Origin: a virus
Strand: one strand, 5' to 3'
DNA: 53,692 bases
IMG/VR virus record: IMGVR_UViG_3300050190_000114
A model generated the notes under the pieces. The model saw only the letters and a list, made by a program, of their open reading frames with translations. It did not search any database and was not told where the DNA came from. Below are positions 4,178 through 33,709 of this stretch, in pieces. Both the position numbers and the translations under genes were made by a program. The first letter of the stretch is position 1, and every line of letters begins with the position of its first letter.

Positions 4178-4179
4178 CG

Positions 4180-4458: not shown

Positions 4459-4940
4459 TGTGGTGAACCTCCGTTCGCCGGGCTGCTCAGGTCCGTGGCT
4501 GGGCTTTGCGCGGTGGAATTCTGCGCGGAGTCGGCGCGAGTTACAAGAGCGCAGATGCGCGATATGAGCATCTTGTTCGATTTGGTTTTCCGGCCTTTAT
4601 TCTCCAAGACACAAACGGACTCTTCAAGTGCGTTAGCCATCTCGGTTACAAGATCCGCTAAATCATCCTGTGTCCGTTGATGGGGACTGCCAATCCTGTC
4701 GGCCATGTCGCTAAACTTGGACAGGATTTCATTCATTCCTGGAACAGGCGGCGGTTCGATGGCGTGGGCATCTTCGTACTCGCCCCATGCATCAATCGCG
4801 GCTTCGGCGTCCTTCAGAGCTTCATCTGGCCGCTTCCCGCCCGCTACCATAGTCGCGAATAACTGAAAGGTCTGCGCGTTCCGAAGTGAGGCGCGTTGTG
4901 AAATCTTGATGTGTTCCAATTGTTCCGGTGAAGGTGTCAT
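4455..4940 (-). CDS. Hypothetical protein
   Basis: 4-nt overlap with the downstream gene. Confidence 0.6.
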   Translation of the reverse strand: MTPSPEQLEHIKISQRASLRNAQTFQLFATMVAGGKRPDEALKDAEAAIDAWGEYEDAHAIEPPPVPGMNEILSKFSDMADRIGSPHQRTQDDLADLVTEMANALEESVCVLENKGRKTKSNKMLISRICALVTRADSAQNSTAQSPATDLSSPANGGSPQ

Positions 4941-4947
4941 GTGCTCC

Positions 4948-5220
4948 TCATTTCGGTTGAAACTCGTTACAGCGGAATTCGGCGTGAGTTGCGAGTATCC
5001 CGGTTACCTTCGGGCTTCCGATGGCGATAAAGCGGGGCCGCTCCTCCGGGTGCTCGGAAAAGTAGACGGTCTCGGTTTGCTCTTGCGCTCGTTTGCAGTG
5101 GCCCCAGTTTGGATGCACGGTGTTTTTGTATTTCCAGAATCGGCACGTTGAGCAAGGGCCGGTCACAATCGCCACCGAGCGGACCACGCGCCGGAAACCT
5201 TTTTGTACAGCCGATGCCAA
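4948..5220 (-). CDS. Small Cys-containing protein
   Basis: Pattern CSTCRFW..GHC..FRC. Operon position. Confidence 0.5.
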   Translation of the reverse strand: MASAVQKGFRRVVRSVAIVTGPCSTCRFWKYKNTVHPNWGHCKRAQEQTETVYFSEHPEERPRFIAIGSPKVTGILATHAEFRCNEFQPK

Positions 5221-5233
5221 ACCATAATCGTAC

Positions 5234-6865: not shown

Positions 6866-7032
6866 GTAGCCCTCATCTCTTTGTGGGACAAGTATTTATA
6901 TATAGATATAAACCTACATGATTGGCAAACGGGCGTCAAGGGGGTTATGGTTAAGCCTGTTGTCGTGTCTCTCGTTCGGATGTCTCCAGCCGGGGCCGTC
7001 ACGCAAGCGGTCCCGGTGCAAAAAACTTTTGA
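6866..7032. promoter_or_regulatory. Divergent intergenic control region with an AT-rich core
   Basis: Separates the leftward and rightward operons. Contains TATTTATATATAGATATAAA. A leftward TTGCCA-N18-TATATA candidate is present. Confidence 0.4.
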
Positions 7033-7707
7033 ATGCGGGTTTACGAACCATCCTTCGGTGGAGTCATCAACGTTGACGCCACGCCTCTCTCTGAAGACCC
7101 CGACACCCAAGTAGCGCAAGTGATCGACATGATGGTCGATTACTCGGATGCGGATTCGTTCTCTCCCGAGATCCGCGCCGATGCGTTGCGAGGGTGTGCG
7201 TTAGGGAACGGGGATTGCATCGCCGGCAACTGGCAGGACGTGAAAAACTCGATCCGCTTTGTTCAGGACGAAGACACAGGGGAACCGTTCAGCGCCTGGC
7301 TGAAGCAAGCGCACGATGGCGACGGCGTGCCAGAGGTGCTTGTTCGTCCGGTGGACATGCGCAGAATGGCCGATCCGAAAGGGGATTGCGATTGCTTCTC
7401 GATGACGATGAGAGCTCGCTTGCTTGCTTTGGGAATTCCGGCCGGCTTCGTGACGGTAGCAGTGGATCCTGAAGACCCTGGCCGTTATTCGCATGTGTAC
7501 AACTTCGCGGATTGTTCCGGGGGTCAATGCGGGCCGAATTGGTCAGGACGTGTAGCGCTCGATACGTCGCATGGTCAGTATCCGGGATGGGAAGCTCCTA
7601 ACCCGTATGGGAAACGAGCGGAGTGGCCGCAATCGGGATGGAAAGTTCTTGGAGCTGTAGCTTTAGTAGCGGCTCTTGGGTTTGTTGCGTGGAGGGTGTG
7701 GGCATGA
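7033..7707 (+). CDS. Transglutaminase-like cysteine protease fold protein with a C-terminal TM anchor
   Basis: C-H-D pattern: GDCDCFSMTMRARLLALGIPAGFV, YSHVY, ALDTS. Hydrophobic C-terminus. Confidence 0.65.
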   Translation: MRVYEPSFGGVINVDATPLSEDPDTQVAQVIDMMVDYSDADSFSPEIRADALRGCALGNGDCIAGNWQDVKNSIRFVQDEDTGEPFSAWLKQAHDGDGVPEVLVRPVDMRRMADPKGDCDCFSMTMRARLLALGIPAGFVTVAVDPEDPGRYSHVYNFADCSGGQCGPNWSGRVALDTSHGQYPGWEAPNPYGKRAEWPQSGWKVLGAVALVAALGFVAWRVWA

Positions 7708-7907
7708 CGCATCCTTATATATTGGCCGCGTCACTGTGCCCGATCCGTGCGAACCATTGCGCGGCCGCAGAATACTCGGTCAGAATATCGAAAACAAGCG
7801 TTGCCCAACATTCTCAAGCGGCATTCTATGTTTCCGCGCTCCCGCAAGCCGGAAACCTTCCTTTGCTGGTCAACGGCGGTTTATCCACAGTCGAGGAAAA
7901 CCTGTGA
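7704..7907 (+). CDS. Bridge ORF A (sense ORF filling late cassette A)
   Basis: ATGA overlap with the upstream stop and GTGA overlap with the downstream start. L5 core at 7747-7764. L3 block at 7851-7886. Confidence 0.45.
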   Translation: MTHPYILAASLCPIRANHCAAAEYSVRISKTSVAQHSQAAFYVSALPQAGNLPLLVNGGLSTVEENL

Positions 7908-8554
7908 TACTCCCGATCACCTTAACCGGCAGGCTCGGGCTACCAGGTGGAGGTGTTCCCAACTTCGCACTCGATTCCCAAGGAAACGTAATCGGCGCCG
8001 AGTTCTGGCCTTCAGGATCAGACGCCAGTGGAGTGGATCCGGCAACCGGCGAACCGATGACCGCGGAATCCGGCAGCTCGTCACCGTTTACTAACGATGC
8101 CTCCGTGTGGACCGGAGAAACCCCAGGAGCCCCCAGCATCCTCGATATCGGCTCAAGCGTTCTCAACGTCGGATCGCGGCGCAACACCAGGGGTACGCAG
8201 TGGGACCGGATAGGATCGCAGCGAAGCGAATCGCAGTTTGATAAATGGCGAAGAGCAGGACGTCCGACCGCTTGCTCCAAAGGAATCGGCGATTACACAT
8301 TGTCGAACGGAATGCCGTGCGATCCAACCGTATACGGAGCCGTGCTGTGCCAGGACACAACGCAGCGGATTCTCAACGCGATCGCTGCAGGCGCGAGCGT
8401 AGCGGCCGGCACTCAGGTTCAGCCAGCATACGGAACGCCGGGATATGTCGGCACGCTTCCGCAAGTGGCAGTAGCAGGCTCAGCTTCACCTGGCGCATGG
8501 ATTGTTGGGATAGCAGCCGTAGCAGCAGTTATCTATCTGGTGAAGAACCGATGA
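7904..8554 (+). CDS. Late protein with a C-terminal TM anchor
   Basis: GTG start preceded by GAGGAA and the L3 block. Same frame as track ORF 7676..8554, whose N-terminal extension covers cassette A. Confidence 0.65.
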   Translation: MILPITLTGRLGLPGGGVPNFALDSQGNVIGAEFWPSGSDASGVDPATGEPMTAESGSSSPFTNDASVWTGETPGAPSILDIGSSVLNVGSRRNTRGTQWDRIGSQRSESQFDKWRRAGRPTACSKGIGDYTLSNGMPCDPTVYGAVLCQDTTQRILNAIAAGASVAAGTQVQPAYGTPGYVGTLPQVAVAGSASPGAWIVGIAAVAAVIYLVKNR

Positions 8555-9123
8555 ATCAGGTTTTGAATACAGGCGGCGCAGGCGGTCAAGGCAAACGGGA
8601 GCGCGGCGGCTGTGCTCGCACCCGGAAACAGAAGGTCACCGACCGGGCAAAGCGGTACCGGGCCAATCAACAGGCTTGCCGTCCATCCGGTTCTCGAGAA
8701 TGCGCCATCTGTGGTTCGACTCGTTTTCTAACCATCGACCACAAAGACGGTGACGAATCGAACGGCGCGAAATCTAACCTCCGCTGGCTCTGCAAATCAT
8801 GCAACACGCGGGAAGGGGCGAAGATGGCCAGAAAGGGCAAGGGCCGAAGAACGGCTCAGTACAACCCAGGCGCTCAATCGCTGGGCGAATACGTCAACGC
8901 CGTTCTGCAGCATACCCGCAAGGCGCATGACGAAGGCGGGCGCATCATCCACGAAACCCCGAAGTCTAAGCGCAGGGAATACGCTTCGGAAATCTGGAGC
9001 GCCCGTCAAGCGCGCGGCAACCCGCTGAAGAAGTGGACGCCGGCGACACTGAACGGCGCACGGGTACGGATTCGGGCGGTGGGCAAGGGGCTGCAGATTG
9101 ATCTCGGCAAGGTGGGGCGCTGA
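8551..9123 (+). CDS. HNH-motif basic protein in the structural module
   Basis: ATGA overlap. Motif CAICGS..LTIDHKDGDESNGAKSNLRWLCKSCN. The C-terminal WTPATLNGARVRIR segment is shared with the next protein. Confidence 0.6.
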   Translation: MNQVLNTGGAGGQGKRERGGCARTRKQKVTDRAKRYRANQQACRPSGSRECAICGSTRFLTIDHKDGDESNGAKSNLRWLCKSCNTREGAKMARKGKGRRTAQYNPGAQSLGEYVNAVLQHTRKAHDEGGRIIHETPKSKRREYASEIWSARQARGNPLKKWTPATLNGARVRIRAVGKGLQIDLGKVGR

Positions 9124-9536
9124 TGGCGAAGCAAACACGAGCAAGCGTCGAAGCGAAAATCCAGCGCTTGAATGATCTGATGAGCCGACGGATGCTCACA
9201 GCCAAAGAAAGACAGCGCTGGAGGCAATTAGTCGCATTGGCGGAACGATTGAAAAGGAATCCCGTGGCAACCAAGAAGAAAAAGAAGAAAGCGAAGCGCC
9301 CGGCCAAGAAGAACTGCAAGACAGCCCGGAACAAAAAACAGACGCGCGCCAAAACCAAGAAGCGCTCCACCGCGCGCAAAAAGTCTAATCCGGCGAAGAA
9401 TCTACGGGCCAAAATCTCTCAAATGAAACCCGGAAGCTGGTACCCCACTACTTTATCTGGCGCCCGTGTAAAAGTTCAAAGGAAAGGAAACAACAGTCTG
9501 CTAATCCGTCCCGCAGGTAAAAAACGCAGCCGATGA
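9123..9536 (+). CDS. Highly basic Lys/Arg-rich protein (possible DNA-condensing or internal protein)
   Basis: KKKKKKAKRPAKK tracts. C-terminal WYPTTLSGARVKVQ is paralogous to the 8551..9123 C-terminus. Confidence 0.6.
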   Translation: MAKQTRASVEAKIQRLNDLMSRRMLTAKERQRWRQLVALAERLKRNPVATKKKKKKAKRPAKKNCKTARNKKQTRAKTKKRSTARKKSNPAKNLRAKISQMKPGSWYPTTLSGARVKVQRKGNNSLLIRPAGKKRSR

Positions 9537-10252
9537 GCACAGTTCCACAATACGAATGGACCGGCTGGAGACGCACCGGCTATCAGATGCCTCACTGGGG
9601 ACTCTCCGGGAGTTCTCAGCAGGGAGACGCGAAAGCTGTAGCCGGATCATTGCAGCAGATGGCATCGGCAGCCACCAAGGCCGGCATCCCGATCGCGGGC
9701 GCAGTGTTGGAAGCGGGCGCCGCGCTGGCAAATATCGTCTCGCTGTTTGGCCCCAATCCAAACAACACCATCACAACCGAATGGGTAAACCAGATGGAAG
9801 CGGACGTAATGAAGCCGAACCTTGCAGCGTGGCAATCTCTCGCACCGGAAGAAAAGACACCCCAAGCTCAGCAGTACGCCCTGGAAGTTTTCAGCCAGGG
9901 CTGGAATCAGATCGTGCAATTATGCTCCAATCCCCAGCTCGGCTCGGCAGGATCAAACTGTCTGAAGGATCGGCAGCGTGGCGGTAAGTGGGACTGGTTT
10001 GGATACTACTACGATCCGATTGCAAACGATCCGGCAGTAGCGGCCAATGTCGCAGCGGCAAAAGTGGCGGCGCAAAGTTCCACACCGGGCGCACCTGTCA
10101 ACACTAGCACGCCGGGCTCGGCGGGCGGCAGCAACACCGCATCCGCTTCAGGCTCTACAACTGTTTCCAACTCAAGCACGAATCTCTACTTGTGGGGCGG
10201 GCTTGCTTTAATCGCTTTCGGATTGGGTTACGTCCTCACGGAGAACGACTGA
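9533..10252 (+). CDS. Late membrane protein (C-terminal TM, Ser/Thr-rich linker)
   Basis: ATGA overlap. C-terminal LWGGLALIAFGLGYVL. Confidence 0.65.
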   Translation: MSTVPQYEWTGWRRTGYQMPHWGLSGSSQQGDAKAVAGSLQQMASAATKAGIPIAGAVLEAGAALANIVSLFGPNPNNTITTEWVNQMEADVMKPNLAAWQSLAPEEKTPQAQQYALEVFSQGWNQIVQLCSNPQLGSAGSNCLKDRQRGGKWDWFGYYYDPIANDPAVAANVAAAKVAAQSSTPGAPVNTSTPGSAGGSNTASASGSTTVSNSSTNLYLWGGLALIAFGLGYVLTEND

Positions 10253-10935
10253 TGAACGTCCAACTCCGCAACGGAAACGGCTACCCCTCGCGTGGAGGCT
10301 TCCGCTACCCCGGCAGACAGAGACGATCCGGAATCGGCGCCGATCCTGGAGTGAACGTCACAACGATCTGGACACCCTCAGGCGGATGGAGCGGAAGCGG
10401 CAGCGGACCAGCGGTGTATCAAGCCCCCACACCCATAGCGCCTCCGGCTTGTAGCCAGGACACGCGACCGGGCGGCGCGGCATTCTCGTCGGCATGCATC
10501 GCGCAACTGCTAGCGACACAGCAGCAGAACATGGCGCAAGGAACCGCAGCGAACTACAACGTGGACGTACAGAACTGCTTGAATACCTTCCCGCAACCGC
10601 CAGACTGCTACTCGCGAACCTTCGGGCTCACCCTTCCAGGAACAACAGGCGGATCGACTGCCGATATTGTAAACGCAGCGGCTCTCTTGGGAGACCCAGC
10701 GGCGAAAGCGCTAGCCGCGGAAGGTGTACCGCCTACCCCTCCAGTGACAACGCCGCAGCAGACGCCGAAAGCAACACCTCCGCAGCAAGGCGGGACCACG
10801 GCAGATAGCACGAACGCCACAAGTTCATCGAGTTCAAGTTCCGGCGCAGCGCTAGTTTCGGCTCCCATCAATCCGATGCTGTATTGGATTGCGGGACTAG
10901 CAGCAGTAGCCTTGATTATTTCGGCGGTTAAATGA
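10252..10935 (+). CDS. Late membrane protein (C-terminal TM, Pro/Thr/Ser-rich linker)
   Basis: ATG 10252 overlaps the upstream stop. C-terminal YWIAGLAAVALIISAV. Confidence 0.65.
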   Translation: MNVQLRNGNGYPSRGGFRYPGRQRRSGIGADPGVNVTTIWTPSGGWSGSGSGPAVYQAPTPIAPPACSQDTRPGGAAFSSACIAQLLATQQQNMAQGTAANYNVDVQNCLNTFPQPPDCYSRTFGLTLPGTTGGSTADIVNAAALLGDPAAKALAAEGVPPTPPVTTPQQTPKATPPQQGGTTADSTNATSSSSSSSGAALVSAPINPMLYWIAGLAAVALIISAVK

Positions 10936-12531: not shown

Positions 12532-12704
12532 AGAACCTCGGAGGCTACGGGTATCAATGGAGGCATTCCCCGGGATGCTGTAAAGCCGGAGCGATTGCAG
12601 CCGGAGACGTGAGGCCAGATTGTGAATCCTCATGCTGGTTTTGGATTCTCGCGTTAGGAGCGGTGGGACTGGCGATGATTCTTCCAAAAAAGGGGCAGAA
12701 GTGA
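12528..12704 (+). CDS. Small Cys-rich TM protein (58 aa, below the track cutoff)
   Basis: ATGA overlap with the upstream stop. Translation MKNLGGYGYQWRHSPGCCKAG..WFWILALGAVGLAMIL. Confidence 0.5.
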   Translation: MKNLGGYGYQWRHSPGCCKAGAIAAGDVRPDCESSCWFWILALGAVGLAMILPKKGQK

Positions 12705-13009
12705 AATCAGTTTTTGGGCTGATCGGGATGTTGCGGCTCTGTGCTCGGCATTGCGCGGAGGCGTTGAAATTCCGGTCCCCAGCGTTGCGCCAATTCAGGA
12801 ACAGAGCATACCGGGCATTCCGAACTCGTACGTATGCTGAATTCGCTGTGGCGATGAATTGTGAAGAATGCGCCACAGTCGGGACAGGTGACAGTTTCGG
12901 ACATTTCGGAAATGCGTCCGAGCATCAAGGCCTCCGCGCACTGATGGCCAGAATAGCAGAAATCTTCAACGGCGGTTTACCCCTAATCCCAATTGAGGCG
13001 CTGACATGA
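12701..13009 (+). CDS. Bridge ORF B (sense ORF spanning late cassette B)
   Basis: GTGA overlap upstream and ATGA overlap downstream. L5 block at 12711-12758. L3 block at 12967-12983. Same frame as track ORF 12632..13009. Confidence 0.4.
   Translation: MKSVFGLIGMLRLCARHCAEALKFRSPALRQFRNRAYRAFRTRTYAEFAVAMNCEECATVGTGDSFGHFGNASEHQGLRALMARIAEIFNGGLPLIPIEALT
12707..12928 (-). CDS. Antisense zinc-ribbon protein inside cassette B
   Basis: Pattern CPDCGAFF..CPVC. Its C-terminus RAMPSTEPQHPDQPKN is encoded by the reverse complement of the L5 block. Confidence 0.45.
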   Translation of the reverse strand: MMLGRISEMSETVTCPDCGAFFTIHRHSEFSIRTSSECPVCSVPELAQRWGPEFQRLRAMPSTEPQHPDQPKN

Positions 13010-19291: not shown

Positions 19292-19693
19292 ATGCTGGCT
19301 TTAGAAATGGCATTCTTCTGGCTGAGCGGGTCCTGGGTATCCGGGACCTTCGCAGCCGTACCCAGCGTACCGCTCGCAGGCACAGACGGGCAGGGAGCGC
19401 CCGGCGCAGGAAGTTACGCCTCCTGGCTGATTTCGGCGGCCGATGGAGACACGCTAATGGTTTTTCCGCACGGCTTCAAGCAAACCTCACCATCGGGGAA
19501 TCCGAGCTTGGGCTTCACGCCGGATCTGGCGCAAATTCAGCCTTTGGCAAGTGTCGCGCTGGGTGCCCGTCCCAACTGGGGAGTCACCTTGGATACAACC
19601 AACGTGACTCTTCTGAAACAAGGCGTAGCAGGATCGGGCGGTACACCGGCGGCAAAGCTCGTTATCATGCGCCCGCAGTCGCACATCGAGTAA
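19292..19693 (+). CDS. PHGFKQ-domain protein, paralog 1
   Basis: SD AAAGGAGAAA. Motif FPHGFKQTSPSGNP..NVTLLKQG..GSGG. Shared with 19706..20038 and the C-terminus of 20051..21034. Confidence 0.7.
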   Translation: MLALEMAFFWLSGSWVSGTFAAVPSVPLAGTDGQGAPGAGSYASWLISAADGDTLMVFPHGFKQTSPSGNPSLGFTPDLAQIQPLASVALGARPNWGVTLDTTNVTLLKQGVAGSGGTPAAKLVIMRPQSHIE

Positions 19694-19705: not shown

Positions 19706-20038
19706 ATGGGAATCGTCGTTACACCCGTCGTCAACAAGACAGATTACAAATCTTGGACCGTGACCGCATTAGACGGTGACACGGTTCTCATCTTTCCGCA
19801 CGGATTTAAGCAAGTCGCGCCTAGTGGAAATCCCTTGACCGGATTCGCGCCGGATTTCTGCATGCTTCAGAGATTTGTCAGCTACGCCAATGCGGCCTTG
19901 CCGGATTGGGGCTGTGTAGCCGATGCAGCCAATATCACTCTCACCAAACAGGGTTCGGCGGGGTCGGGTGGAGCCGTACCGGGAACTACGCTTATAGCAA
20001 AAGTCTTCGCGTGGCGCCCGCATTCCATCGGCGAGTAA
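19706..20038 (+). CDS. PHGFKQ-domain protein, paralog 2
   Basis: Motifs TDYKSWTVTALDGDT, FPHGFKQVAPSGNP, WRPHSIGE. Confidence 0.7.
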   Translation: MGIVVTPVVNKTDYKSWTVTALDGDTVLIFPHGFKQVAPSGNPLTGFAPDFCMLQRFVSYANAALPDWGCVADAANITLTKQGSAGSGGAVPGTTLIAKVFAWRPHSIGE

Positions 20039-20050
20039 AGGAGAAAAATA

Positions 20051-21034
20051 ATGGCAAATCCAGCACCCATAAATCTTAACTCCGCGGCCAGTTTCTCAGT
20101 CCTGGGGGCCTCTACGGTCACCAACACCGGGGCATCAGTCGTCAATGGAAACCTGGGACTAAGCCCCGGCACGTCCATTGTCGGCTTTCCGCCTGGCACG
20201 GTTGTCTCAGGTTCCATTCACGATACAGACGCCGCAGCGGCCAATGCCCAAGTGGACTTGACCGCGGCTTACGTTGATGCCGCAGGGCGCACCGGGGCGG
20301 TTATCGTCTCGGGCGACATTGGCGGCCAGACCTTAGGACCCGGAGTATACAAGTCCACATCCTCACTCGGCATCACCGGGACTCTCACACTGGACGGGCA
20401 AGGAAGCGCGGCAAGCGTCTTTATCTTCCAGATCGCCAGCACCCTCACAACCGCGAGCGCCGCGAGGATCGTTCTCATCAACGGAGCGATCGCGGCTAAC
20501 GTGTTTTTCCAGGTGGGCAGCTCGGCAACCCTGGGAACCACTACCGCTTTCATCGGCACGATCATGGCGCAAGCTTCGGTCACGCTCACAACCGGCGCAA
20601 CACTCAGCGGGCGAGCTCTCGCACGGACCGGAGCCGTCACGATGGACACCAACACCATCACCAACCCGGCGTTACTTCCAGGACCGCCTCCGGCTCCTCC
20701 GGCGTGTGTTACCGCGGCAACCCAGATCGTCAACCGGACCGATTACAAATCGTGGACGATCACCATGCTCGACGCCGATACGACTCTGGTGATTCCGCAC
20801 GGCTTCAAGCAAACCGCGCCATCGGGGAATCCGCTGCTTGGCCTCATGCCGGATTTCGTGATGTTGCAGGAAATGATCACGTACCTCAACGCGGCGCTTC
20901 CGAACTTTGGATGCGTGGCCGATGCGACCAACATCACGGTATCGAAAACCAACGCAGTCGGATCGGGCGGACCTGGACCGTGTACCGTCATCGCAAAAAT
21001 CGAAGCCTGGCGGGCGCATTCGATAGCCGAGTAA
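20051..21034 (+). CDS. DUF3494/ice-binding-like domain fused to a PHGFKQ domain (spike or adhesin candidate)
   Basis: SD AAAGGAGAAAAA. The N-terminal ~210 aa (LNSAASFSVLGASTVTNTG..VNGNLGLSPGTSIVGFPPG..DLTAAYVDAAG..LGPGVYKS..LTLDGQG..VFIFQI..LSGRALARTGAVTMDTN) closely follow the DUF3494 pattern. Confidence 0.8.
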   Translation: MANPAPINLNSAASFSVLGASTVTNTGASVVNGNLGLSPGTSIVGFPPGTVVSGSIHDTDAAAANAQVDLTAAYVDAAGRTGAVIVSGDIGGQTLGPGVYKSTSSLGITGTLTLDGQGSAASVFIFQIASTLTTASAARIVLINGAIAANVFFQVGSSATLGTTTAFIGTIMAQASVTLTTGATLSGRALARTGAVTMDTNTITNPALLPGPPPAPPACVTAATQIVNRTDYKSWTITMLDADTTLVIPHGFKQTAPSGNPLLGLMPDFVMLQEMITYLNAALPNFGCVADATNITVSKTNAVGSGGPGPCTVIAKIEAWRAHSIAE

Positions 21035-21042
21035 GGGAACTT

Positions 21043-21123
21043 ATGACGATATCACCGGGCTCGGGTATTTCCGAATCGGTTGGACAGCACGACGGCGGTT
21101 CACCCAAAGAAGGTGTCGCATGA
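21043..21123 (+). CDS. Bridge ORF K (26 codons, L3 block only)
   Basis: AAGGGA SD. The stop overlaps the next ATG (ATGA). L3 block at 21082-21105. Confidence 0.4.
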   Translation: MTISPGSGISESVGQHDGGSPKEGVA

Positions 21124-21908
21124 TCCAACCCCGCATCACCGACTTGCATAACCCTTCCTACGGCTACAAGGAATCAAAGCCGAAGAAGAAGCGCTCGAAA
21201 CATCGCAGTAGAAGTAACCCCGGCCCATTCGCCTTAACGCTCGGGCTCATAGGGGCAAATCCAAAAAAAGGAGAAAGAACAATGGCAAAGAAACGGAAGA
21301 AGAACAAGAAAAAAGCCACCCGAGCGCCAGCAAAGGCGAATCGGTCACGGAAAAACAGAAAAGGAAAGCGCAAGAATCCCGGCGTGTCCATGGCGACCAT
21401 TAAGCGCATCATGGGCAAGAAAAAGGGCAAGGGCCGCAGAGGAAAGCGGAACCCGGCCTGGTTGGGCATGAGTTCCAGTGACGCCATTGGAAACTCGGTC
21501 GCGATTTTGGGAGCAGTCACAGGTGCGAAACTCATTCCGCCCATGCTGCCGGCTAACTGGTCGAATACCGATCTCGGCCGATTCCTGACAACGCTCGGCG
21601 TGGCAGTAGGCGAGGTGACGCTCGCTCACTTCATGTTCCCGAAGTACCGCACGATGGTACTCGCCGGAGCCGGCGCCCAGACAATCTCGACCGCGCTCAA
21701 TCCGCTCCTGCGGAAAATCTCGAGCACTATCACGCTCGGACGCATTCAGCAGGCGCGCGCCATGGGCCAGTTGCGGGACTTCGTACCGGGGAACTTCCCC
21801 GAGCCGCATAACCCCATCTACCAGCAGATGATGCTGGCCGCGGCCATGAACCCCGGCGCAACGGCGGGCGGCGGGAGTGTCGGCCGCTACCGCGGGCGCT
21901 TCCGCTAA
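21120..21908 (+). CDS. Basic N-terminus plus hydrophobic core protein carrying the LRDFVPGNFPEPHNPIY motif
   Basis: Lys/Arg tracts, hydrophobic middle, and the motif shared with 14972..15346. A strong alternative start is ATG 21282 after AAAAAGGAGAAAG. Confidence 0.65.
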   Translation: MIQPRITDLHNPSYGYKESKPKKKRSKHRSRSNPGPFALTLGLIGANPKKGERTMAKKRKKNKKKATRAPAKANRSRKNRKGKRKNPGVSMATIKRIMGKKKGKGRRGKRNPAWLGMSSSDAIGNSVAILGAVTGAKLIPPMLPANWSNTDLGRFLTTLGVAVGEVTLAHFMFPKYRTMVLAGAGAQTISTALNPLLRKISSTITLGRIQQARAMGQLRDFVPGNFPEPHNPIYQQMMLAAAMNPGATAGGGSVGRYRGRFR

Positions 21909-21980
21909 ACCGAATTCGAGGGAGCCGCGCAAGATAAACGGCGACTCCCATTGAACTAGCAAAAAGGAGAAAACACAAAC

Positions 21981-22712
21981 ATGCCACGCTATTCGGGAAT
22001 GGGTATGTACACCGGGGCTCTCGGTGGCATCACCCCAACAAAGGTTCTGACCCCTCCGCAAATGACGGACCAGCAAGCCTACATCGTGCAGTCTTTCCAA
22101 TCGCAGGTCTACATCCAGGATATGATGGATGTACAGGACGAACCTATCTATGATACGGTTTCGTTCCTGACCGGCCAGACCATGAGCGTTACCACCGTCT
22201 CGTTCTTTACGAACGTCGGCGACTCGGCGCCCATGTTCCTGACCGCAACCATCAACAAGACGCTGGCCAATACGAATATGTCGGCCAGCGGCAAGTTGAT
22301 CGCACCTGAAGCTCAAGCGATCTTCCAGCATCGCTTGCAGTTCAACGAAAACATCGATCCGCGCGACATGCTGTCGATCACCGGCGCCAACGTCGCCGCG
22401 GGACTCGGCACGCTCCCCACTGGTTTCGCCTACGTCTTCAAGATGGGGACAAAGGAATATCAAACCGGCCCGATCATCGACTACGCCGGCGGGGGAGGGA
22501 TCTACTTCACTGGCACCGCCGACACGCAATCGTATCTCTCGAACGGGATGCCTTGCGCCAATTGCGCGGAATCGCTCAGCGTCAATACCGTGATCGAGAA
22601 CGAAGAGACCTTCAAGGCAAACTTCGTCGGCAATCCCTACATCGTGCTAGGAGCCAGCGGCGTCTCGATCAAAGGTCAGCTCATGGGTTTGCACGCCCGT
22701 CCGATCCGGTAA
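21981..22712 (+). CDS. Candidate major capsid protein (beta-rich, possibly jelly-roll-like)
   Basis: Best SD in the late region (AAAAAGGAGAAAA). Followed by a terminator hairpin. The fold assignment is inference only. Confidence 0.5.
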   Translation: MPRYSGMGMYTGALGGITPTKVLTPPQMTDQQAYIVQSFQSQVYIQDMMDVQDEPIYDTVSFLTGQTMSVTTVSFFTNVGDSAPMFLTATINKTLANTNMSASGKLIAPEAQAIFQHRLQFNENIDPRDMLSITGANVAAGLGTLPTGFAYVFKMGTKEYQTGPIIDYAGGGGIYFTGTADTQSYLSNGMPCANCAESLSVNTVIENEETFKANFVGNPYIVLGASGVSIKGQLMGLHARPIR

Positions 22713-22749
22713 ACGGATCCGGGGCAATGCTTGCAATTGCAGGCGATTT

Positions 22750-22786
22750 CAGGGCCGATCTTCGAGGGCGGCCCTGATTACTTTTC
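22750..22786 (+). terminator. Rho-independent terminator or attenuator after the capsid candidate
   Basis: Perfect 8-bp stem CAGGGCCG/CGGCCCTG with an 11-nt loop, followed by ATTACTTTTC. Confidence 0.6.
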
Positions 22787-22802
22787 AAGGAGACGTTTCG
22801 AG

Positions 22803-23402
22803 ATGAAAGCGTTTTTAGTTTGGGCTCAACTGTACGTTACGCTCTGTGCTTGCCAGTGCGCGGGGAAAGTCGCGTCAGTATCTCAACAGCCCGCTAAGGA
22901 TCAACATCGGGCCGGGTTCACTACTCTTCATTTCGAGACTGGAGCCAGCGCGGGCAATAATCGGAAGCGCGAAGTCACAAGCTGGCCCCATACTCATGCA
23001 CAATGGGCGCCGGAAGATAGCTCTATCGTTGACGCTGAATTCCAGAACGGCATCCAACAATCTTGCACACTCGCTGACCGGCATTTCCGAAGACAAGTAG
23101 ACCCGCATGGAATGGATAGCAAAGTCGGATGGCAATGTAAGTTTAGAGGATGGACTGCCCGTCCAAAACATATAGGGCATCCAAATATCGCCAGCACGTG
23201 GGCTTTCAGGCGGCGCTGCTTTGCCAGTCAACGGCGTGGCAATTGCGCCAGCCAACGCCATGAAGAATTCGCGCCGGTCCATGTCCATGCGCCTATCCTA
23301 GCGGTCCAGCACGGCCCGCGCAACCCATCGCCGCGCTCGGGTATTTACGAATCGGCGCGACTAGTCAACGGCGGTTTATCCCTCATCCAAGGAGCCTTCT
23401 AA
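22803..23402 (+). CDS. Bridge ORF D (200 codons, sense ORF spanning cassette D)
   Basis: SD AAGGAGA before ATG 22803. Its stop lies 2 nt before the next ATG. L5 block at 22812-22863. L3 block at 23366-23382. The composition looks antisense-like. Confidence 0.35.
   Translation: MKAFLVWAQLYVTLCACQCAGKVASVSQQPAKDQHRAGFTTLHFETGASAGNNRKREVTSWPHTHAQWAPEDSSIVDAEFQNGIQQSCTLADRHFRRQVDPHGMDSKVGWQCKFRGWTARPKHIGHPNIASTWAFRRRCFASQRRGNCASQRHEEFAPVHVHAPILAVQHGPRNPSPRSGIYESARLVNGGLSLIQGAF
22875..23288 (-). CDS. Antisense accessory protein with a twin-arginine (Tat) signal peptide
   Basis: N-terminus MDMDRREFFMALAGAIATPLTGKA, followed by a beta-rich body. Confidence 0.55.
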   Translation of the reverse strand: MDMDRREFFMALAGAIATPLTGKAAPPESPRAGDIWMPYMFWTGSPSSKLTLPSDFAIHSMRVYLSSEMPVSECARLLDAVLEFSVNDRAIFRRPLCMSMGPACDFALPIIARAGSSLEMKSSEPGPMLILSGLLRY

Positions 23403-23839: not shown

Positions 23840-23845
23840 GGGGCG

Positions 23846-24538
23846 ATGCGAATTATTTTTTGTTGGCTGATACTTTCGGTGACGGGCTTAACAGGACTGC
23901 GCGCGGCGGATCAATTCACGATCCGAACGAGAATCTCGAGCCGTTCATTCGGGCCGTCCTGCGTTCGAGCCGCGAGAAACGTGCCTGTTTCGGCATTCAC
24001 GATGCAAAGCAGTGGATTTAACTCGCCTCGCCGCTCAGCTTCTGCCATCGTGATCGAAGGCGGCTCCGGTACATCGCTACTGCTGATGTGTTGCCAATCG
24101 CCGGCCATGTCACCGCTCCCGCGTGTCGATTTCGGCCGGCGTGTCGGAGTGCGGACGAGTCGCTACCTGGATAATGTCAAGGCGCTTGCGGCCATGGCAG
24201 ACGACCACACCGCGCTCGCCGTGGCCCGCGTCGACCAGTCTCGCCAAGGTCATATACAGTTCGTAAACGGTTGGTTGGTTCAAGGTGTGGACGTTCACAG
24301 ATTCAATATGCGGCAGTGGCGCTGTGTCTTCGGAGTCGCCGGCGACTCGTTGTTTCCTGCGCTTTCAGGCCGTGGCGCCTGCTCCCGATTTGTCCAGATT
24401 GTCGGAACCTCATACGCTGCCGAATCTATAGTAGCGGAACAGCACGACCGGCGCAACCCATCACAGGGCTCGGGTATTTCACGAAGCGTGAGAACTGGTC
24501 AACGGCGGTTTACCCCAAAGGATTCGGCCAATGGCTAA
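23846..24538 (+). CDS. Bridge ORF E (231 codons, sense ORF spanning cassette E)
   Basis: Starts 6 nt after the upstream stop. Stops 5 nt past the downstream ATG. Degenerate L5 block at 23856-23906. L3 block at 24498-24516. Confidence 0.35.
   Translation: MRIIFCWLILSVTGLTGLRAADQFTIRTRISSRSFGPSCVRAARNVPVSAFTMQSSGFNSPRRSASAIVIEGGSGTSLLLMCCQSPAMSPLPRVDFGRRVGVRTSRYLDNVKALAAMADDHTALAVARVDQSRQGHIQFVNGWLVQGVDVHRFNMRQWRCVFGVAGDSLFPALSGRGACSRFVQIVGTSYAAESIVAEQHDRRNPSQGSGISRSVRTGQRRFTPKDSANG
23911..24108 (-). CDS. Antisense small ORF 2 of a coupled pair in cassette E
   Basis: 65 aa. Starts 1 nt after the stop of 24110..24298. Confidence 0.35.
   Translation of the reverse strand: MAGDWQHISSSDVPEPPSITMAEAERRGELNPLLCIVNAETGTFLAARTQDGPNERLEILVRIVN
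24110..24298 (-). CDS. Antisense small ORF 1 of a coupled pair in cassette E
   Basis: 62 aa. TGAcATG junction with the next antisense ORF. Confidence 0.35.
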   Translation of the reverse strand: MNVHTLNQPTVYELYMTLARLVDAGHGERGVVVCHGRKRLDIIQVATRPHSDTPAEIDTRER

Positions 24539-25415
24539 ACCCTTCCTCTACTCCCCAGCAGGTCAATGCTGCGAATTGGACGAACCTTACCAAGCCCCAG
24601 TAGGCTACTTCGACCAGCCCTTCCTGTACGTATATGACCTCGCCAGTCCCAACGGAAACCCCGTCCCAGTCCCAGACGGACAGGACCGTCGACGCGCCAC
24701 GGTTACGACCTTCACCGGCGCCGATTTTCTAATGAGACGAGTGGCCGGGATCGACCGAGCATGCGAAAACTTCCAGATGCGAGACCAACTCGCCCGGCTC
24801 ATCTTCGATGAGAACATCGACACCAATTATCGGGATTTCCCGCTCGTGCCGGAACTTCTCTACGACGGCGGCAACGGGATCAGCTTCGACCTTTTGAACG
24901 TCCAGAAAGCCGTCAACACCTCGGGAAGCATCATTTCCCAAGTCGCCTTTCAAGGCGTCCGAAGATTCAAGGGCTACCGCAGACCTCCGAGTTATCCATA
25001 TTGGGAAGACGAATTCAAGTATGAAATCGACATTGCCATCGATGGAAGCTGGCCGCTAGGCGCTGTTCGCCCTTTCGGTCTGGACGTGTACGATTACGAT
25101 TTCGAGCTGCTCGAGATTCTGGAGTGCATCATCAACCCGGTAAACGGAGGCCCGCCGTGTGCTCCGGGAGGCGTTAACCAAGCGTTCAAAATCCAGTTGT
25201 ACGACCAGTTGAACGAGACGGTTTTCTCCGCGCCAGTTCTTGACGATCTGATCGTTTCGAATTCCGTCAGCTATCTGGGAGTCGTTCCCGTTCCAGGAAT
25301 CGTCTACCGGATCGGGCAGAGAATCAAATTTGATTTGGTGAATCTGGTTACACCAGGGGCTTGTGCGGTTCAGGTACAGCTCACGTTTCATGGAGTGAGG
25401 AGACGGCCGTGTTGA
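24531..25415 (+). CDS. Beta-rich capsid-associated protein (ADFxxR paralog family, 294 aa)
   Basis: Preceded by the L3 block. Motifs GADFLMRRVAG and VQVQLTFHGVRRR. Confidence 0.6.
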   Translation: MAKPFLYSPAGQCCELDEPYQAPVGYFDQPFLYVYDLASPNGNPVPVPDGQDRRRATVTTFTGADFLMRRVAGIDRACENFQMRDQLARLIFDENIDTNYRDFPLVPELLYDGGNGISFDLLNVQKAVNTSGSIISQVAFQGVRRFKGYRRPPSYPYWEDEFKYEIDIAIDGSWPLGAVRPFGLDVYDYDFELLEILECIINPVNGGPPCAPGGVNQAFKIQLYDQLNETVFSAPVLDDLIVSNSVSYLGVVPVPGIVYRIGQRIKFDLVNLVTPGACAVQVQLTFHGVRRRPC

Positions 25416-26026
25416 GCGCCTTATTGTTTGGGCTGATCGGGATGTTGCGGGTCCGTGCTCGGCATTGCGCGGCGGCAATCGGGAAGCCGTTCGAAGATGA
25501 GCAAACCCTTCGGCGTTACGCCGCAGGGCTTGAATCCAGCCCTCAGGAATCACCGGCCAGGGTCGCGCTTATGTCGAACCTTGGAAGCATCAACGAACGT
25601 AAAGAGGCGCTCTCCGGGCCAGCGTTGCCATGCTTCCGAGACGGCGGCTTCAATCAGATCACTGGCGCGGCCGGCGCTCGATCCCTCGTTACGAAACACT
25701 GCATTATTGACGCCGATTTGACCATCAAGCCGATACCGTTCTTTCCGCCACACGAACAGAGCGCGCGCGTCGGGGCTCAGCAGCACAATCGACTCACCGG
25801 GTCCAACGAATTGCGCCTGCATTTCTGGCTTCCGCTTAGCAGAATAGTGGCGCGAGAAGATCGAAAGCGCGCTCACGTTTCCGTCACGAATCAGAATCCA
25901 TGGCCCATCGGAAAACAAGAACGGCTGTTCAGGCATGGCGCTATTGTACAGCTCCCGCGCACTGGCTTGCACGCATCGGGCAACCCGGCGAACGGCGGTT
26001 CACCCCTAATCCAAGGAGCGCTCTAA
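25409..26026 (+). CDS. Bridge ORF F (206 codons, sense ORF spanning cassette F)
   Basis: GTG/TTG start overlaps the upstream stop. Its stop lies 3 nt before the next ATG. L5 block at 25421-25472. L3 block at 25990-26006. Confidence 0.35.
   Translation: MLSALLFGLIGMLRVRARHCAAAIGKPFEDEQTLRRYAAGLESSPQESPARVALMSNLGSINERKEALSGPALPCFRDGGFNQITGAAGARSLVTKHCIIDADLTIKPIPFFPPHEQSARVGAQQHNRLTGSNELRLHFWLPLSRIVAREDRKRAHVSVTNQNPWPIGKQERLFRHGAIVQLPRTGLHASGNPANGGSPLIQGAL
25550..25972 (-). CDS. Antisense accessory gene with RHYS..FVGPG..FRNE motifs (GNAT-like family suspected), ending at an in-frame TGA
   Basis: The motif order matches an uncharacterised phage/actinobacterial family as I recall it. The frame stays open for 42 more codons after the TGA (to 25421). 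Confidence 0.5.
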   Translation of the reverse strand: MQASARELYNSAMPEQPFLFSDGPWILIRDGNVSALSIFSRHYSAKRKPEMQAQFVGPGESIVLLSPDARALFVWRKERYRLDGQIGVNNAVFRNEGSSAGRASDLIEAAVSEAWQRWPGERLFTFVDASKVRHKRDPGR

Positions 26027-27291: not shown

Positions 27292-27441
27292 ATGAAAGTG
27301 CTTTTAGTTTGGGCTGAACGCGGATTGACGGGCCGTGCTCGGCATTGCGCGGTGACAGTCTCCGCGCGCACGACAATCGGAAACCTTCGCGGAATGTGCG
27401 ACGGCGGTTCACCACAAAGGCGGCCATGCTTACCAACATAG
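27292..27441 (+). CDS. Bridge ORF G (49 aa), minimal complete cassette
   Basis: L5 block at 27301-27352. Hairpin GCGCGG-N9-CCGCGC. L3 block at 27379-27413. Its stop lies 13 nt past the downstream ATG 27426. Confidence 0.4.
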   Translation: MKVLLVWAERGLTGRARHCAVTVSARTTIGNLRGMCDGGSPQRRPCLPT

Positions 27442-28986: not shown

Positions 28987-30033
28987 ATGCCGACGATTAG
29001 AGCCCCTAGGACGAATCGCAGGAGCCTCTGCCATGGTTTACTATGGCTAAAACAGGGTTCCAGTCGTTGGGCCGTGCTCTTGTGCGCCCTTCTTGCGGGT
29101 GGGAGCGCGGGGGCTTTTCTTTTCGATCCGTGCTGGAGGCTGGACAGGTGGGGCGGGAATGTCGAAGGTCATCAGGCGATGCTCTCGGATCAATCCGGCG
29201 ACCAGATCTCCACTGAAGTCGAACAGCAGATTATTTTTCTCTTCGCTGGCTTCGAACCGTTGGCCGCCCTTTTCGATTACGCCCCTCTTCAGCCGAACGC
29301 AAATGACTGGCATATCTGCCGTGCAAGCGCTCAACTCAGGGCAAACGACGGCCAGAGTCGCGCCCTTGTATTCGAACAGGTCTCCGATTCCGACCTCGAC
29401 CTCTCCGTACTGATCGCGCAGCGTCATGCTAGTCACGGCCTCGATTCCATTTGGCCCGTCGCAGATCATGCTTCCAGCCGTTTCAGAATCGCTTTTGTCA
29501 TCCGCCGATTGTACAATTTCCAGAACCAGTTTAACAGCATCGTTTTATTCTCCTGCCTTAGAGACGTGCGAAATGGTACCAGCGTGTCCGATTTTGGTTC
29601 TATTTCTTGCCCTAGGCCGTTGGTTCTACGTACCTACGGGATGAGGACCTTAGTTTGGGCTCGACATTCGACGCAGGCTCAGGATCGGCATTGCGCGGGG
29701 GCGGTCAATGCCTGGCAACCTCTAGCCGAGTTATCCGCTCACCCTGGCTGGCTAACCGCTGTTCGATGCGATCAAGAATCCCTTCGATGCGATCCAGACG
29801 GCGCGCGAAGTCATCCAGCCGCTTATTATTCGCCCACGTGCCAAAAAGAACGGCGATCACTATCGGCAGCGCGGTCGAAAGAGCGATCACTATCGGCAGC
29901 GCGGTCGAAAGAAAGGATTGCAGCATCGGATTGTTCACCCGTCAAGTATGCGCCGAATCAGCAGCGGGCGCAATACGCCACAGCGCACTTCAGTACTGAA
30001 ACCCTCGACCGACTGTCGAGCCCAACAACATGA
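28987..30033 (+). CDS. Bridge ORF I (349 codons, sense ORF spanning a 1-kb double cassette)
   Basis: ATG 1 nt after the upstream stop. ATGA overlap with the downstream start. Internal L5 block at 29649-29698, where an internal Met (29641) restarts the family N-terminus. Confidence 0.35.
   Translation: MPTIRAPRTNRRSLCHGLLWLKQGSSRWAVLLCALLAGGSAGAFLFDPCWRLDRWGGNVEGHQAMLSDQSGDQISTEVEQQIIFLFAGFEPLAALFDYAPLQPNANDWHICRASAQLRANDGQSRALVFEQVSDSDLDLSVLIAQRHASHGLDSIWPVADHASSRFRIAFVIRRLYNFQNQFNSIVLFSCLRDVRNGTSVSDFGSISCPRPLVLRTYGMRTLVWARHSTQAQDRHCAGAVNAWQPLAELSAHPGWLTAVRCDQESLRCDPDGARSHPAAYYSPTCQKERRSLSAARSKERSLSAARSKERIAASDCSPVKYAPNQQRAQYATAHFSTETLDRLSSPTT
29047..29469 (-). CDS. Antisense accessory protein (140 aa) in cassette I
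   Basis: Balanced protein-like composition. Codon-aligned antisense to the bridge ORF. Confidence 0.45.
   Translation of the reverse strand: MICDGPNGIEAVTSMTLRDQYGEVEVGIGDLFEYKGATLAVVCPELSACTADMPVICVRLKRGVIEKGGQRFEASEEKNNLLFDFSGDLVAGLIREHRLMTFDIPAPPVQPPARIEKKSPRAPTRKKGAQEHGPTTGTLF
29705..29938 (-). CDS. Antisense TM plus coiled-coil protein (77 aa) in cassette I
   Basis: Duplicated TM segment STALPIVIA x2, then the heptad-like LDDFARRLDRIEGILDRIEQRL. Confidence 0.45.
   Translation of the reverse strand: MNNPMLQSFLSTALPIVIALSTALPIVIAVLFGTWANNKRLDDFARRLDRIEGILDRIEQRLASQGERITRLEVARH
29853..29912. repeat. Perfect 30-bp tandem duplication (2 copies)
   Basis: GCGATCACTATCGGCAGCGCGGTCGAAAGA occurs twice back to back. 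This is 10 codons, so it is in frame on both strands. Confidence 0.95.
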
Positions 30034-33107: not shown

Positions 33108-33227
33108 ATGAGGGTTTGGGTTCAACGCGGATTTACGGGCCGTACTCGGCATTACGCGGCGACTATCTCCGCGCTCCCAGAGCTGGAAACCTTGGCATAC
33201 TGGTGGACGGCGGTTTACCACTTATGA
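33108..33227 (+). CDS. Bridge ORF J (39 aa), second minimal complete cassette
   Basis: Starts 5 nt after the upstream stop. ATGA overlap with the next start. L5 block at 33112-33159. L3 block at 33185-33219. Alignable end to end with cassette G. Confidence 0.4.
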   Translation: MRVWVQRGFTGRTRHYAATISALPELETLAYWWTAVYHL

Positions 33228-33709
33228 TGCTCATCACCTTCGAAGACATGCCCCAACCATCTCAGCAGAACCCACCCTCCAATTGGCCTTATGCCCTCAC
33301 CGGCGTACTCATGGCATGCCTGGGAGTGATCGCCATCCTCGTGTTGACCTCGCTGCGCCCGACTCAGGACAATAGCGTTCTCATCGCGACCGTGATCGGC
33401 TTTCTGAGCACGACGACCGGCGTCATTATGACCTTCATGAAGGCGCAGGAAACGCACCTGGCGGTGAATTCGCGACTGGATGCTTTCATGGCAAGCGCTC
33501 GCAAAGTCGGACATCTGGAAGGGGAAGTATCGGGCCGAATGGCGGGAATCGCCGAAGGGGAGCTCCGGCGCCCTCTCGCTGCTCCCGCTGTTCCAACTAC
33601 CCTGGAAGTGGATACCAACCTCACGGCGCATAAGATCGACAACGATGCCACCGCGCGCCAAGCGCCCAAACCGTCACCCACTAACGCGGCCAAAAACAAG
33701 GATTTATGA
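33224..33709 (+). CDS. Two-TM membrane protein, holin candidate
   Basis: Two hydrophobic helices followed by a charged tail. Lies immediately upstream of the muramidase-like gene. Confidence 0.45.
   Translation: MMLITFEDMPQPSQQNPPSNWPYALTGVLMACLGVIAILVLTSLRPTQDNSVLIATVIGFLSTTTGVIMTFMKAQETHLAVNSRLDAFMASARKVGHLEGEVSGRMAGIAEGELRRPLAAPAVPTTLEVDTNLTAHKIDNDATARQAPKPSPTNAAKNKDL

Follow-up and report, generated by a model that had tools for sequence, protein, structure and literature searches.

The segment 22803-23402 of a 53,692-nt stretch of viral DNA (IMG/VR record IMGVR_UViG_3300050190_000114; in the following, the window) contains two overlapping, codon-aligned open reading frames (ORFs) on opposite strands. 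The minus-strand ORF encodes a 137-aa protein with a putative twin-arginine translocation (Tat) signal, and the plus-strand ORF runs from one gene of a co-directional block to the next. We think it probable that this is a movable cassette which carries the gene of a Tat-signal protein in antisense orientation, and that the sense frame bridging the cassette has been selected to stay open. Read against its relatives, the segment is a movable cassette between the genes of a 243-aa and a 144-aa protein, bounded by intergenic elements, L and R, that are repeated elsewhere in the genome. The features needed for the argument are the following.

21981-22712, plus strand: 243-aa gene upstream of the cassette, with its stop codon TAA at 22710-22712
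22749-22777, plus strand: G+C-rich hairpin CAGGGCCG...CGGCCCTG, then ATTACTTTTC, found in the same place in relatives
22787-22793, plus strand: Shine-Dalgarno (SD) sequence AAGGAGA, 9-10 nt before ATG 22803
22803-23402, plus strand: bridging sense ORF of 199 codons and a stop, from ATG 22803 to TAA 23400-23402, the stop lying 2 nt before ATG 23405
22803-22871, plus strand: L element, left border (..GTTTGGGCTCAAC..N..GCGCGG), from a repeat family of about 15 copies
22875-23288, minus strand: gene of the 137-aa protein (MDMDRREFFMALAGAIATPLTGKAAPP...), recognised by substitution pattern, homologs and an AlphaFold2 model
23217-23288, minus strand: part coding for the predicted signal peptide, residues 1-24, with the RR pair at residues 5-6, FFMALAGAIATPLTG, Lys23 and GKA/A
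23318-23402, plus strand: R element, right border (CCGCGC..GGGTATTTACGAATCGG..GTCAACGGCGGTTTATCC..AAGGAG), 12 copies
From ATG 23405, plus strand: 144-aa gene downstream of the cassette

The open plus frame from ATG 22803 to TAA 23400, after AAGGAGA and 2 nt before the next gene, is present as the first-pass annotation of this DNA had described it. It is exactly codon-aligned with the minus ORF (22875-22803 = 72) and is also open in the related contig L001. Its SD and spacing match those of real genes of this phage, with the same layout as the genes at 23405 and 26030.

The minus-strand gene and its product

Gene callers pick the minus ORF 22875-23288 in nine contigs. Its sole close homolog, P0002, is about 74-75% identical and incomplete, as contig L001 ends within it. 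Along the 80 codons that can be aligned, the two genes show 14, 9 and 36 differences at the minus-frame codon positions 1, 2 and 3, respectively. Read in the minus frame, 26 of the 46 changed codons are synonymous and the amino-acid identity is 75%; for the plus frame the values are 6 codons and 50%. Furthermore, an exhaustive HMMER search found three more distant relatives (P0003-P0005, with 38%, 33% and 26% identity). Two remote homologs lie on the phage-like contigs L010 and L011, inside ordinary co-directional operons of small genes, and in each of them the aligned antisense frame contains three stops. Because of the substitution pattern, the homologs and the stops in L010 and L011, the minus ORF is a real gene of a small phage protein family under purifying selection; no such conservation holds for the protein read from the plus strand. 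The proposal that the minus ORF is the best protein-like reading of the insert is therefore borne out by the 14/9/36 pattern and the synonymous codons.

A comparison of codon usage in both frames gave no verdict. The strand-discriminating score of the minus ORF is 0.06 bits per codon, compared with 0.15-0.58 for real genes, and a score of about zero in the gene body does not decide between the strands; the scores of the short flanks are too noisy. The G+C content at third codon positions (GC3) is not unusual in the cassette genes. We were not able to find a match for either ORF of the cassette, or for the homologs of the Tat protein, in Pfam, PHROGs, NCBIfam or PADLOC, and a sequence search of the PDB with the family profile found nothing. 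A likeness between C-terminal motifs of the Tat protein and of the neighbouring 144-aa protein was rejected (hhalign probability 0.5%).

The gene likely starts at its second ATG (23282), which has a better-spaced AGGATAGG and gives the N-terminus MDRREFF, matching the homologs. All four full-length members of the family have the motif RRxF[LF] and an uncharged stretch rich in A, G and T. The motifs read DRREFFM in the window, NRREFLS in P0003, TRRGFLE in P0004 and SRRDFFK in P0005, with the RR pair at residues 3-6, and the uncharged stretches are 15, 23, 19 and 12 residues long with a mean Kyte-Doolittle hydrophobicity of 1.3-2.5. In the window protein the hydrophobic region (h-region) is FFMALAGAIATPLTG, 15 residues, followed by Lys23 and a possible cleavage site GKA/A. 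Like Tat signal peptides, the N-terminus combines RR-x-F-[LF] with an A/G/T-rich h-region of mild hydrophobicity and with a small-x-small site that a basic residue precedes. Unlike in the consensus, the first position is D or N in two members instead of S or T, and there is no profile match.

For this assignment we used the consensus (S/T)-R-R-x-F-L-K and the rule for the h-region and c-region, which follow TATFIND-type criteria, applied without the program. The consensus is found near the N-terminus, as are an h-region of the usual length (about 12-20 residues) and a small-x-small site with a basic residue. The best evidence for a Tat-type signal is that this N-terminus is kept at an overall identity of 26-38%. 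The twin-arginine motif and hydrophobic region noted in the first reading are thereby conserved among all full-length homologs, so that a Tat-type export signal is well supported by the motif and export of the protein is predicted. We know of few phage-encoded Tat substrates.

An AlphaFold2 model from a five-sequence alignment (predicted local distance difference test, pLDDT, 77; predicted template modelling score, pTM, 0.64) begins with a helix that corresponds to the signal; a disordered linker connects it to a sandwich with about nine strands and a single short helix. The mature part, about 113 aa, is plausibly a small jelly-roll beta-sandwich, in agreement with the beta-rich body that had been expected from the letters. 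Foldseek gave generic jelly-roll matches only (E between 2e-4 and 1e-2, template modelling scores of 0.4-0.5), namely the nucleoplasmin core, C1q/TNF-like domains, single-jelly-roll coat proteins and the tips of phage tail fibres. Many of these folds are obligate oligomers, which would fit the Tat export of a pre-folded protein. No function follows from the fold matches.

In L010, the operon with the remote Tat homolog also encodes a signal-peptide-bearing collagen-repeat protein (we noted 4048-4716 and 6497-7238), and the Tat homolog converges on apparent lysis genes. Exported accessory proteins seem to cluster in this operon.

Two weak promoter-like arrangements precede the minus-strand gene.

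23368-23363 and 23347-23342, minus strand: TTGACT and TAAATA, forming the pair TTGACT-N15-TAAATA
23295-23323, minus strand: alternative pair TTGCGC-N17-TAGGAT, then 6 nt and the ATG, a leaderless-type layout

The first pair had been reported as a leftward promoter-like element. Its letters are present, about 3 nt from the coordinates given then; its reading as a promoter is not supported, since the spacer has 15 nt, a sigma-70 scan (spacers of 16-18 nt) found nothing for the minus gene, and both hexamers are part of the R element, which does not fit the sigma-70 pattern and also precedes plus-strand genes without an antisense neighbour. A similar pair, TTGACC-N16-GAAATA, does occur on the minus strand of a second cassette (23846-24538), as noted before. 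In both verified antisense genes a -10-like hexamer stands exactly 6 nt before the ATG, as TAGGAT-aggcgc-ATG (23295-23300) and TACAAT-agcgcc-ATG (25942-25947); in the latter case, the gene 25550-25972, TACAAT, 6 nt and the ATG together occupy 25947-25934. This layout hints at leaderless transcripts and makes the hexamers candidate promoter elements. No minus-strand intrinsic terminator was seen for the antisense gene.

Cassette borders and mobility

Copies of L (GTTTGGGCTCAAC...GCATTGCGCGG) lie directly 3' of plus-strand genes, and L is kept beside the Tat gene in L001. Copies of R (CCGCGC...GGAAACC or GGGTATTT...GTCAACGGCGGTTTACC) are found about 20-40 nt upstream of gene starts and often carry an SD; at the cassette, R supplies the SD (AAGGAG) of the 144-aa gene. 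In filled sites the cargo sits exactly between GCGCGG, the end of L, and CCGCGC, the start of R. There are also "empty" sites (27292-27430, 33113-33230 and, on the minus strand of L001, about 760-905), in which L and R abut as GCGCGG-N9-CCGCGC over about 112-150 nt. Each of these empty elements is spanned by a small ORF that starts at an ATG in L and whose end overlaps the ATG of the next gene in two cases and lies just past the next ATG at 27292.

The 243-aa protein has 48 homologs, and seven related contigs were fetched and examined. In L014, L015, L016 and L017 there is no insert, and nothing but a hairpin and an SD stands between the 243-aa homolog and the 144-aa homolog, the gaps being 93-140 nt. 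In L001 a bare L-R element (about 150 nt) occupies the insert site of the window, and the Tat gene is found one slot downstream, after the 144-aa homolog. L013 has a different cassette at the insert site, with a 69-aa antisense gene, and L018 has no antisense gene anywhere in the virion-gene block. The earlier view of an insert into a co-directional block of virion-type genes is confirmed by the insert-free contigs L014-L017 and by the altered arrangements in L001 and L013. In L016, the same hairpin is followed by the SD TTCAAGGAGA, and it is the 144-aa homolog that this SD directly serves; in the window it stands in front of the plus-ORF ATG. The hairpin after the 243-aa gene looks like a terminator or an attenuator, to judge from its letters and place; it has only 6 bp, and the RNA folding energies at the cassette borders are no better than those of shuffled sequence.

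Antisense genes are found in further cassettes of the window.

12632-13009: minus-strand gene 12707-12928, 73 aa, CxxC...CxxC, zinc-ribbon-like
23846-24538: minus-strand gene 24110-24298, 62 aa, with a 63% homolog in L016; perhaps also 23911-24108
25409-26026: minus-strand gene 25550-25972, 140 aa, phrog_24928 (E 1.5e-14)
28987-30033: minus-strand genes 29047-29469 (140 aa) and 29705-29926 (73 aa, membrane-like)

The phrog_24928 gene has a 65-70% identical homolog at another slot in L016, and the gene 29047-29469 has homologs in L013 and L016, also in changed slots. Both 140-aa genes were compared with their homologs codon by codon, and minus-frame selection was found. In two of the window's cassettes the gene callers chose the plus ORF. 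A recombinase is not evident.

Bridging frames and alternative readings

A stop-free sense frame spans all 11 antisense inserts that we saw in this group of phages (the window, L013, L016, L019 and L001).

Window: bridges 12632-13009; 22803-23402; 23846-24538; 25409-26026; 28987-30033
L013: bridges 8748-9104; 9542-10582 (346 codons, over three antisense genes)
L016: bridges 5079-5450; 8826-10175 (449 codons, over three antisense genes)
L019: bridge 7543-8478, over a Pfam HNH_3 gene
L001: bridge of at least 105 codons

The bridges begin at the stop of the upstream gene or a few codons from it, and their ends either overlap the next ATG or leave 2-4 nt in front of it. In this respect the sense frame is wired like a gene of the operon, starting at the upstream stop and ending at the downstream start. 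In 13 of 15 cases the antisense gene is codon-aligned with its bridge; in this phase, synonymous substitutions in the antisense gene are able to eliminate stops from the bridge. This requires the antisense gene to avoid the codons TTA, CTA and TCA. Genome-wide, TTA and CTA make up 17.4% of the Leu codons and TCA 14.7% of the Ser codons. In the three codon-aligned genes of the window (the Tat gene and the two 140-aa genes) none of the 36 Leu and 35 Ser codons is one of these three, and the probability of this, given the protein sequences, is 0.0045, 0.016 and 0.055, the first value being that of the Tat gene with its 15 Leu and 16 Ser codons under genome codon usage. When the antisense genes are pooled, none of their 206 Leu and Ser codons is TTA, CTA or TCA, where about 33 would be expected (P about 1e-16 at genome usage). 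Codons ending in A are normal for the other amino acids in the cassette genes (0.188 vs 0.206), and minus-strand genes outside the operon have 2.0-3.7 TTA, CTA or TCA codons per 100. Taken together with the substitution pattern, the openness of the bridge is, by all we can read from the codons, under selection, and its amino-acid sequence is not.

In the distant relative L019, the HNH_3 homing-endonuclease gene lies antisense between two virion genes (7660-8109). TTA, CTA and TCA are absent from its 149 codons, and over its whole length the frame of the downstream gene is open.

Potentially, both strands could code, as a true antisense overlapping pair whose plus product is secreted or membrane-bound, with an N-terminus (MKAFLVWAQLYVTLCACQCAG...) that resembles a signal peptide and is encoded by the L element. 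We consider this unlikely, if the most serious of the alternatives. The plus ORF has a strong SD and an ATG, gene callers prefer it in two cassettes of the window, in most bridging ORFs a hydrophobic segment comes after an initial basic residue (one of them with a lipobox-like LLGC), and functional antisense overlap has a precedent in phage, gene 10/olg1 of Fc02 (PMC9936078). On the other hand, the low share of synonymous changes (6 of 46) and the 50% identity in the plus frame are what the constraint on the minus frame alone would give, and the same is true for three other cassette genes. Furthermore, where the minus gene sits in other phages there is no homolog of the plus product and the frames carry stops, the bridge sequences are wholly different between cassettes, and the copies of L and R are read in different frames. 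Of the plus ORF as a competing reading, its openness thus stands, as a selected feature of every antisense insert, and its role as a rival gene falls with the 6 synonymous codons.

A second possibility is that the open frame serves to lengthen the structural protein encoded upstream of it, through readthrough of the stop codon or a frameshift. It does lie in frame with the 243-aa gene, the TAA at 22710-22712 being the sole separator and the frame being open from 22713, and the same in-frame relation is seen for 5 of 9 bridges, including 23840-24538, both L013 cassettes and L001. The other 4 of the 9 are out of frame with the upstream gene, however, and between the stop of the 243-aa gene and the bridge there are a terminator-like hairpin and a separate SD and ATG. 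Such an extension would also have to be unconstrained in sequence and wholly changed between relatives, and we regard it as very unlikely.

It is more improbable again that the plus frame is open by chance, as the meaningless shadow of a gene with biased codon usage. In this genome of 56% G+C, shadow ORFs with lengths of 130-394 codons are common, and for the Tat gene alone the empirical chance is about 3.5%: within real genes of the genome, the aligned antisense frame is open in 3.5% of 137-codon stretches and in 0.7% of 200-codon stretches. When any stop-free antisense frame is counted, the real genes give 0.7% of 600-nt stretches and 0 of 2505 stretches of 690 nt; including the 394-codon shadow at 21345-22529 raises these values to about 1% and 0.3%, by our estimate. 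However, all 11 inserts in the five phages are bridged, also over 346 and 449 codons, the absence of stop-complementary codons among the 206 is hard to obtain by chance, the open frame includes the flanks, and the ends of the ORFs coincide exactly with the borders of the adjacent genes. The cassette genes have neither an unusual GC3 nor a shortage of A-ending codons, and the stops expected by chance are present in the remote homologs, in the minus-strand genes outside the operon and in the outgroup P22 (BK000583), where the late-operon block sieA-orf59a-mnt has 20-30 stops in every sense frame. Finally, a reading of the plus ORF as the true gene, with the minus ORF as its shadow, is the least credible of all, since the near-zero codon score of the minus ORF (0.06 bits per codon) and the better SD of the plus ORF are outweighed by the minus-frame substitution pattern, which already refutes it, and by minus-frame homologs that keep the RR motif down to 26% identity where the plus frame is closed.

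We therefore return to a movable antisense cassette with a selected open bridge. Why the bridges are open is a separate question, and our answer to it is tentative, plausible to us but a little short of probable: the bridging ORFs would be kept open through the codon choice of the antisense genes, their products would be irrelevant, and they would act as translated spacers which allow the operon to tolerate antisense inserts without polarity. With the sense ORF as a translated spacer, the operon mRNA would never be free of ribosomes over 0.3-1.3 kb; translation of the bridge would prevent Rho-type polarity or mRNA decay and would deliver ribosomes to the next cistron. P22 late transcription is antiterminated, which fits its missing bridge. 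Untranslated mRNA is an established substrate of Rho (reviewed in PMC12360218). The cargo protein would come from a promoter of its own at times when the operon is silent, in early infection or lysogeny, and convergent transcription of the operon would later turn it down, making the expression of cargo and operon mutually exclusive. It would fold in the cytoplasm, perhaps as an oligomer, and be exported by the Tat pathway to the cell envelope. What it does there can only be guessed; a modification of the envelope that blocks other phages is a guess by analogy, and one that we rate as rather unlikely. The superinfection exclusion or receptor masking proposed in the first reading is likewise an analogy.

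Several points weigh against this interpretation. The call of a Tat signal stands on the motif and its conservation: neither the window protein nor its homologs match TIGR01409 or PF10518 (NCBIfam with E up to 10, Pfam with E up to 0.05-0.1), these being very short models whose weak matches are dropped by the HMMER filters, and the h-region is short (15 residues). The AlphaFold2 model was built on five sequences only, and the fold matches are weak and generic. Both the promoter of the minus gene and the translation of the bridge are predicted features. No integrase or repressor was recognised in our search, and expression in lysogeny is thereby without support. The G+C and purine content of the cassettes is like that of the neighbours, and composition gives no sign of a foreign origin; the plus-strand C/G ratio and purine content of the cassette are likewise the same as in neighbouring genes and lend no independent support to Rho sensitivity. 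The presence of the 394-codon shadow ORF means that one open antisense frame alone is weak evidence. Finally, many bridges start with a signal-peptide-like hydrophobic stretch, so that their products could matter after all. The N-termini read, for example, MKAFLVWAQLYVTLCAC in the window, MGRMLLVWALLSVTLCAC in L016 and ...FLALLGCGS in another bridge; they may be a by-product of the T-rich L element, or they may belong to targeted products.

Genome setting and known systems

Since bases 1-127 recur exactly at 53566-53692 as a direct repeat of 127 nt, the window is a complete circular or terminally redundant phage-like genome of 53,565 bp. Nearly all genes between about 7 kb and 34 kb are on the plus strand, tightly packed and coupled, and from this gene order we infer that the block is a late operon. 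Among the products that can be named are a beta-helix protein, an ice-binding-like protein, DnaB, two HNH endonucleases, DUF5131 and a papain-like protease, which by their annotation point to a virion module and a replication module. Neither Pfam nor PHROGs recognised an HK97-type capsid protein, a portal or a terminase anywhere. Because most window proteins have no match in Pfam or PHROGs, the virus belongs to an uncharacterised group, and no RNA family of Rfam was found in the window. Searches with blastn against phage records, of IMG/VR with the two flanking proteins, of metagenome contigs with the Tat protein and of GTDB genomes with the family alignment yielded no relatives, and for this reason we can give neither a prophage nor a host assignment.

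The flanking genes had been called capsid-like, and this description is not sustained: the 243-aa and 144-aa genes have no match in Pfam or PHROGs, and the 243-aa protein, when modelled from 27 sequences (pLDDT 74), comes out as a beta-sandwich whose matches are weak and limited to C1q/TNF/jelly-roll folds (E > 0.03). In the contigs L003, L006, L007 and L008, which come from other samples and are otherwise identical, the 243-aa gene has an allele differing at 82 of 732 positions (11%). The adjoining 692 nt, with the hairpin, the cassette and the borders, have no difference in L003, L006 and L007 and one in L008 (C-to-T at 22794), where the contig extends over part of R only. A 417-aa gene shows 37 differences in L003 and L005. 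The pattern of alleles indicates mosaic recombination with apparent breakpoints at gene borders.

The 243-aa gene has a GC3 of 0.76 and only one TTA, CTA or TCA codon, and the 394-codon shadow ORF (21345-22529, minus strand) lies antisense to it and to the gene of a 262-aa protein. We take this as a warning that long antisense ORFs here also arise from plain codon bias. The gene upstream of the 243-aa gene (21120-21908; in L001, 1743-2666 on the minus strand) encodes a protein whose N-terminal half (KKRKKNKKKATRAPAKANRSRKNRKGKRKNP) is extremely rich in Lys and Arg and whose C-terminal half is hydrophobic, and this product could be a DNA-condensing or internal protein. The motif FPEPYNPIY is repeated at 14997, 15066 and 21766.

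A repeat of about 110 nt occurs in three adjacent plus-strand ORFs, including that of the ice-binding-like 327-aa protein (19414-19525, 19744-19855 and 20743-20854). It encodes one shared C-terminal domain (..TDYKSWT.T.LD.DT.L..PHGFKQ.APSGNPL..), so that adjacent proteins bear paralogous tips. Repeats of a third family (GCGGACCTCC...N...GAATTCAAAC), about 58 nt long, are present in at least 13 copies in the non-virion part of the genome only, just upstream of genes, and are probably early or middle promoters or leader elements.

Core starts of the third repeat: 1563, 2105, 3147, 35207, 37016, 38966, 41580, 43568, 43958, 44537, 47209, 50353, 51020

A long plus-strand gene starting at about 51.3 kb crosses the end of the window; the ORF lists miss it and show only its minus-strand shadows. 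Two of these, 51969-52589 and 52971-53438 (minus strand), had been taken as control genes with open antisense frames and were rejected for this reason.

If our interpretation is right, the bridges are an adaptation at the level of the operon, in which a long overlapping ORF is selected for being translated and not for its product. It would be a clean natural case of a long antisense-overlapping ORF under selection only to stay open, and it bears on the dispute whether long overlapping ORFs of prokaryotes are genes, on gene calling (the wrong strand was picked in two cassettes of the window) and on how operons tolerate antisense inserts through transcription-translation coupling and Rho polarity. 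It also adds a conserved phage family with a Tat-type signal, encoded by a swappable accessory gene, as a candidate envelope factor that might by analogy serve exclusion or receptor masking. To our knowledge, neither such a bridging ORF nor codon-usage selection of this kind has been described before.

Among known systems, the "ant moron" of P22 (sieA/orf59a/mnt; PMC2629481, BK000583) is similar in that accessory genes without a role in morphogenesis lie between virion genes, some of them on the opposite strand, and that the inserts are present, absent or different among relatives; the P22 moron includes a superinfection-exclusion gene (PMC2629481). As in a moron, the insert is present or absent at one site of a syntenic operon; a differing base composition is not seen here. 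Unlike in the P22 block, with its 20-30 stops in every sense frame, the sense frame here is open, and the cargo has a Tat-type signal. The layout, an opposite-strand gene nested in a co-directional operon, is also that of the noncontiguous operons, for example tha/ith of the S. aureus phage 80alpha (PMC11087260), and in such S. aureus phages the nested antisense arrangement makes expression mutually exclusive (PMC11087260). By the same layout, the two transcription states should exclude each other here, which would couple the expression of the insert to the life cycle of the phage. For the published noncontiguous operons no translated sense ORF across the antisense gene is described (PMC11087260), whereas here there is a bridge.

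The closest published analogy for the repeat-bounded shuffling would be the PeSL cassettes of T4-type phages (PMC2839356, PMC4122927), in which short repeated motifs flank small variable genes that swap positions; in our phages, too, repeated motifs flank variable genes and the same cassette gene is found at different slots in relatives. Unlike in PeSL cassettes, there are two unlike borders, L and R, which abut in empty sites (GCGCGG-N9-CCGCGC), and the inserts are antisense and in the virion-gene block instead of in early hyperplastic regions, with no mini-circles known. Finally, the codon-aligned long ORFs on opposite strands resemble antisense overlapping genes such as gene 10/olg1 of phage Fc02 (PMC9936078) and the candidates in enterohaemorrhagic Escherichia coli (PMC9927249). 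Unlike in pairs in which both strands code, the selection on amino acids is seen here on the minus strand only, and the plus strand is constrained only to lack stops.

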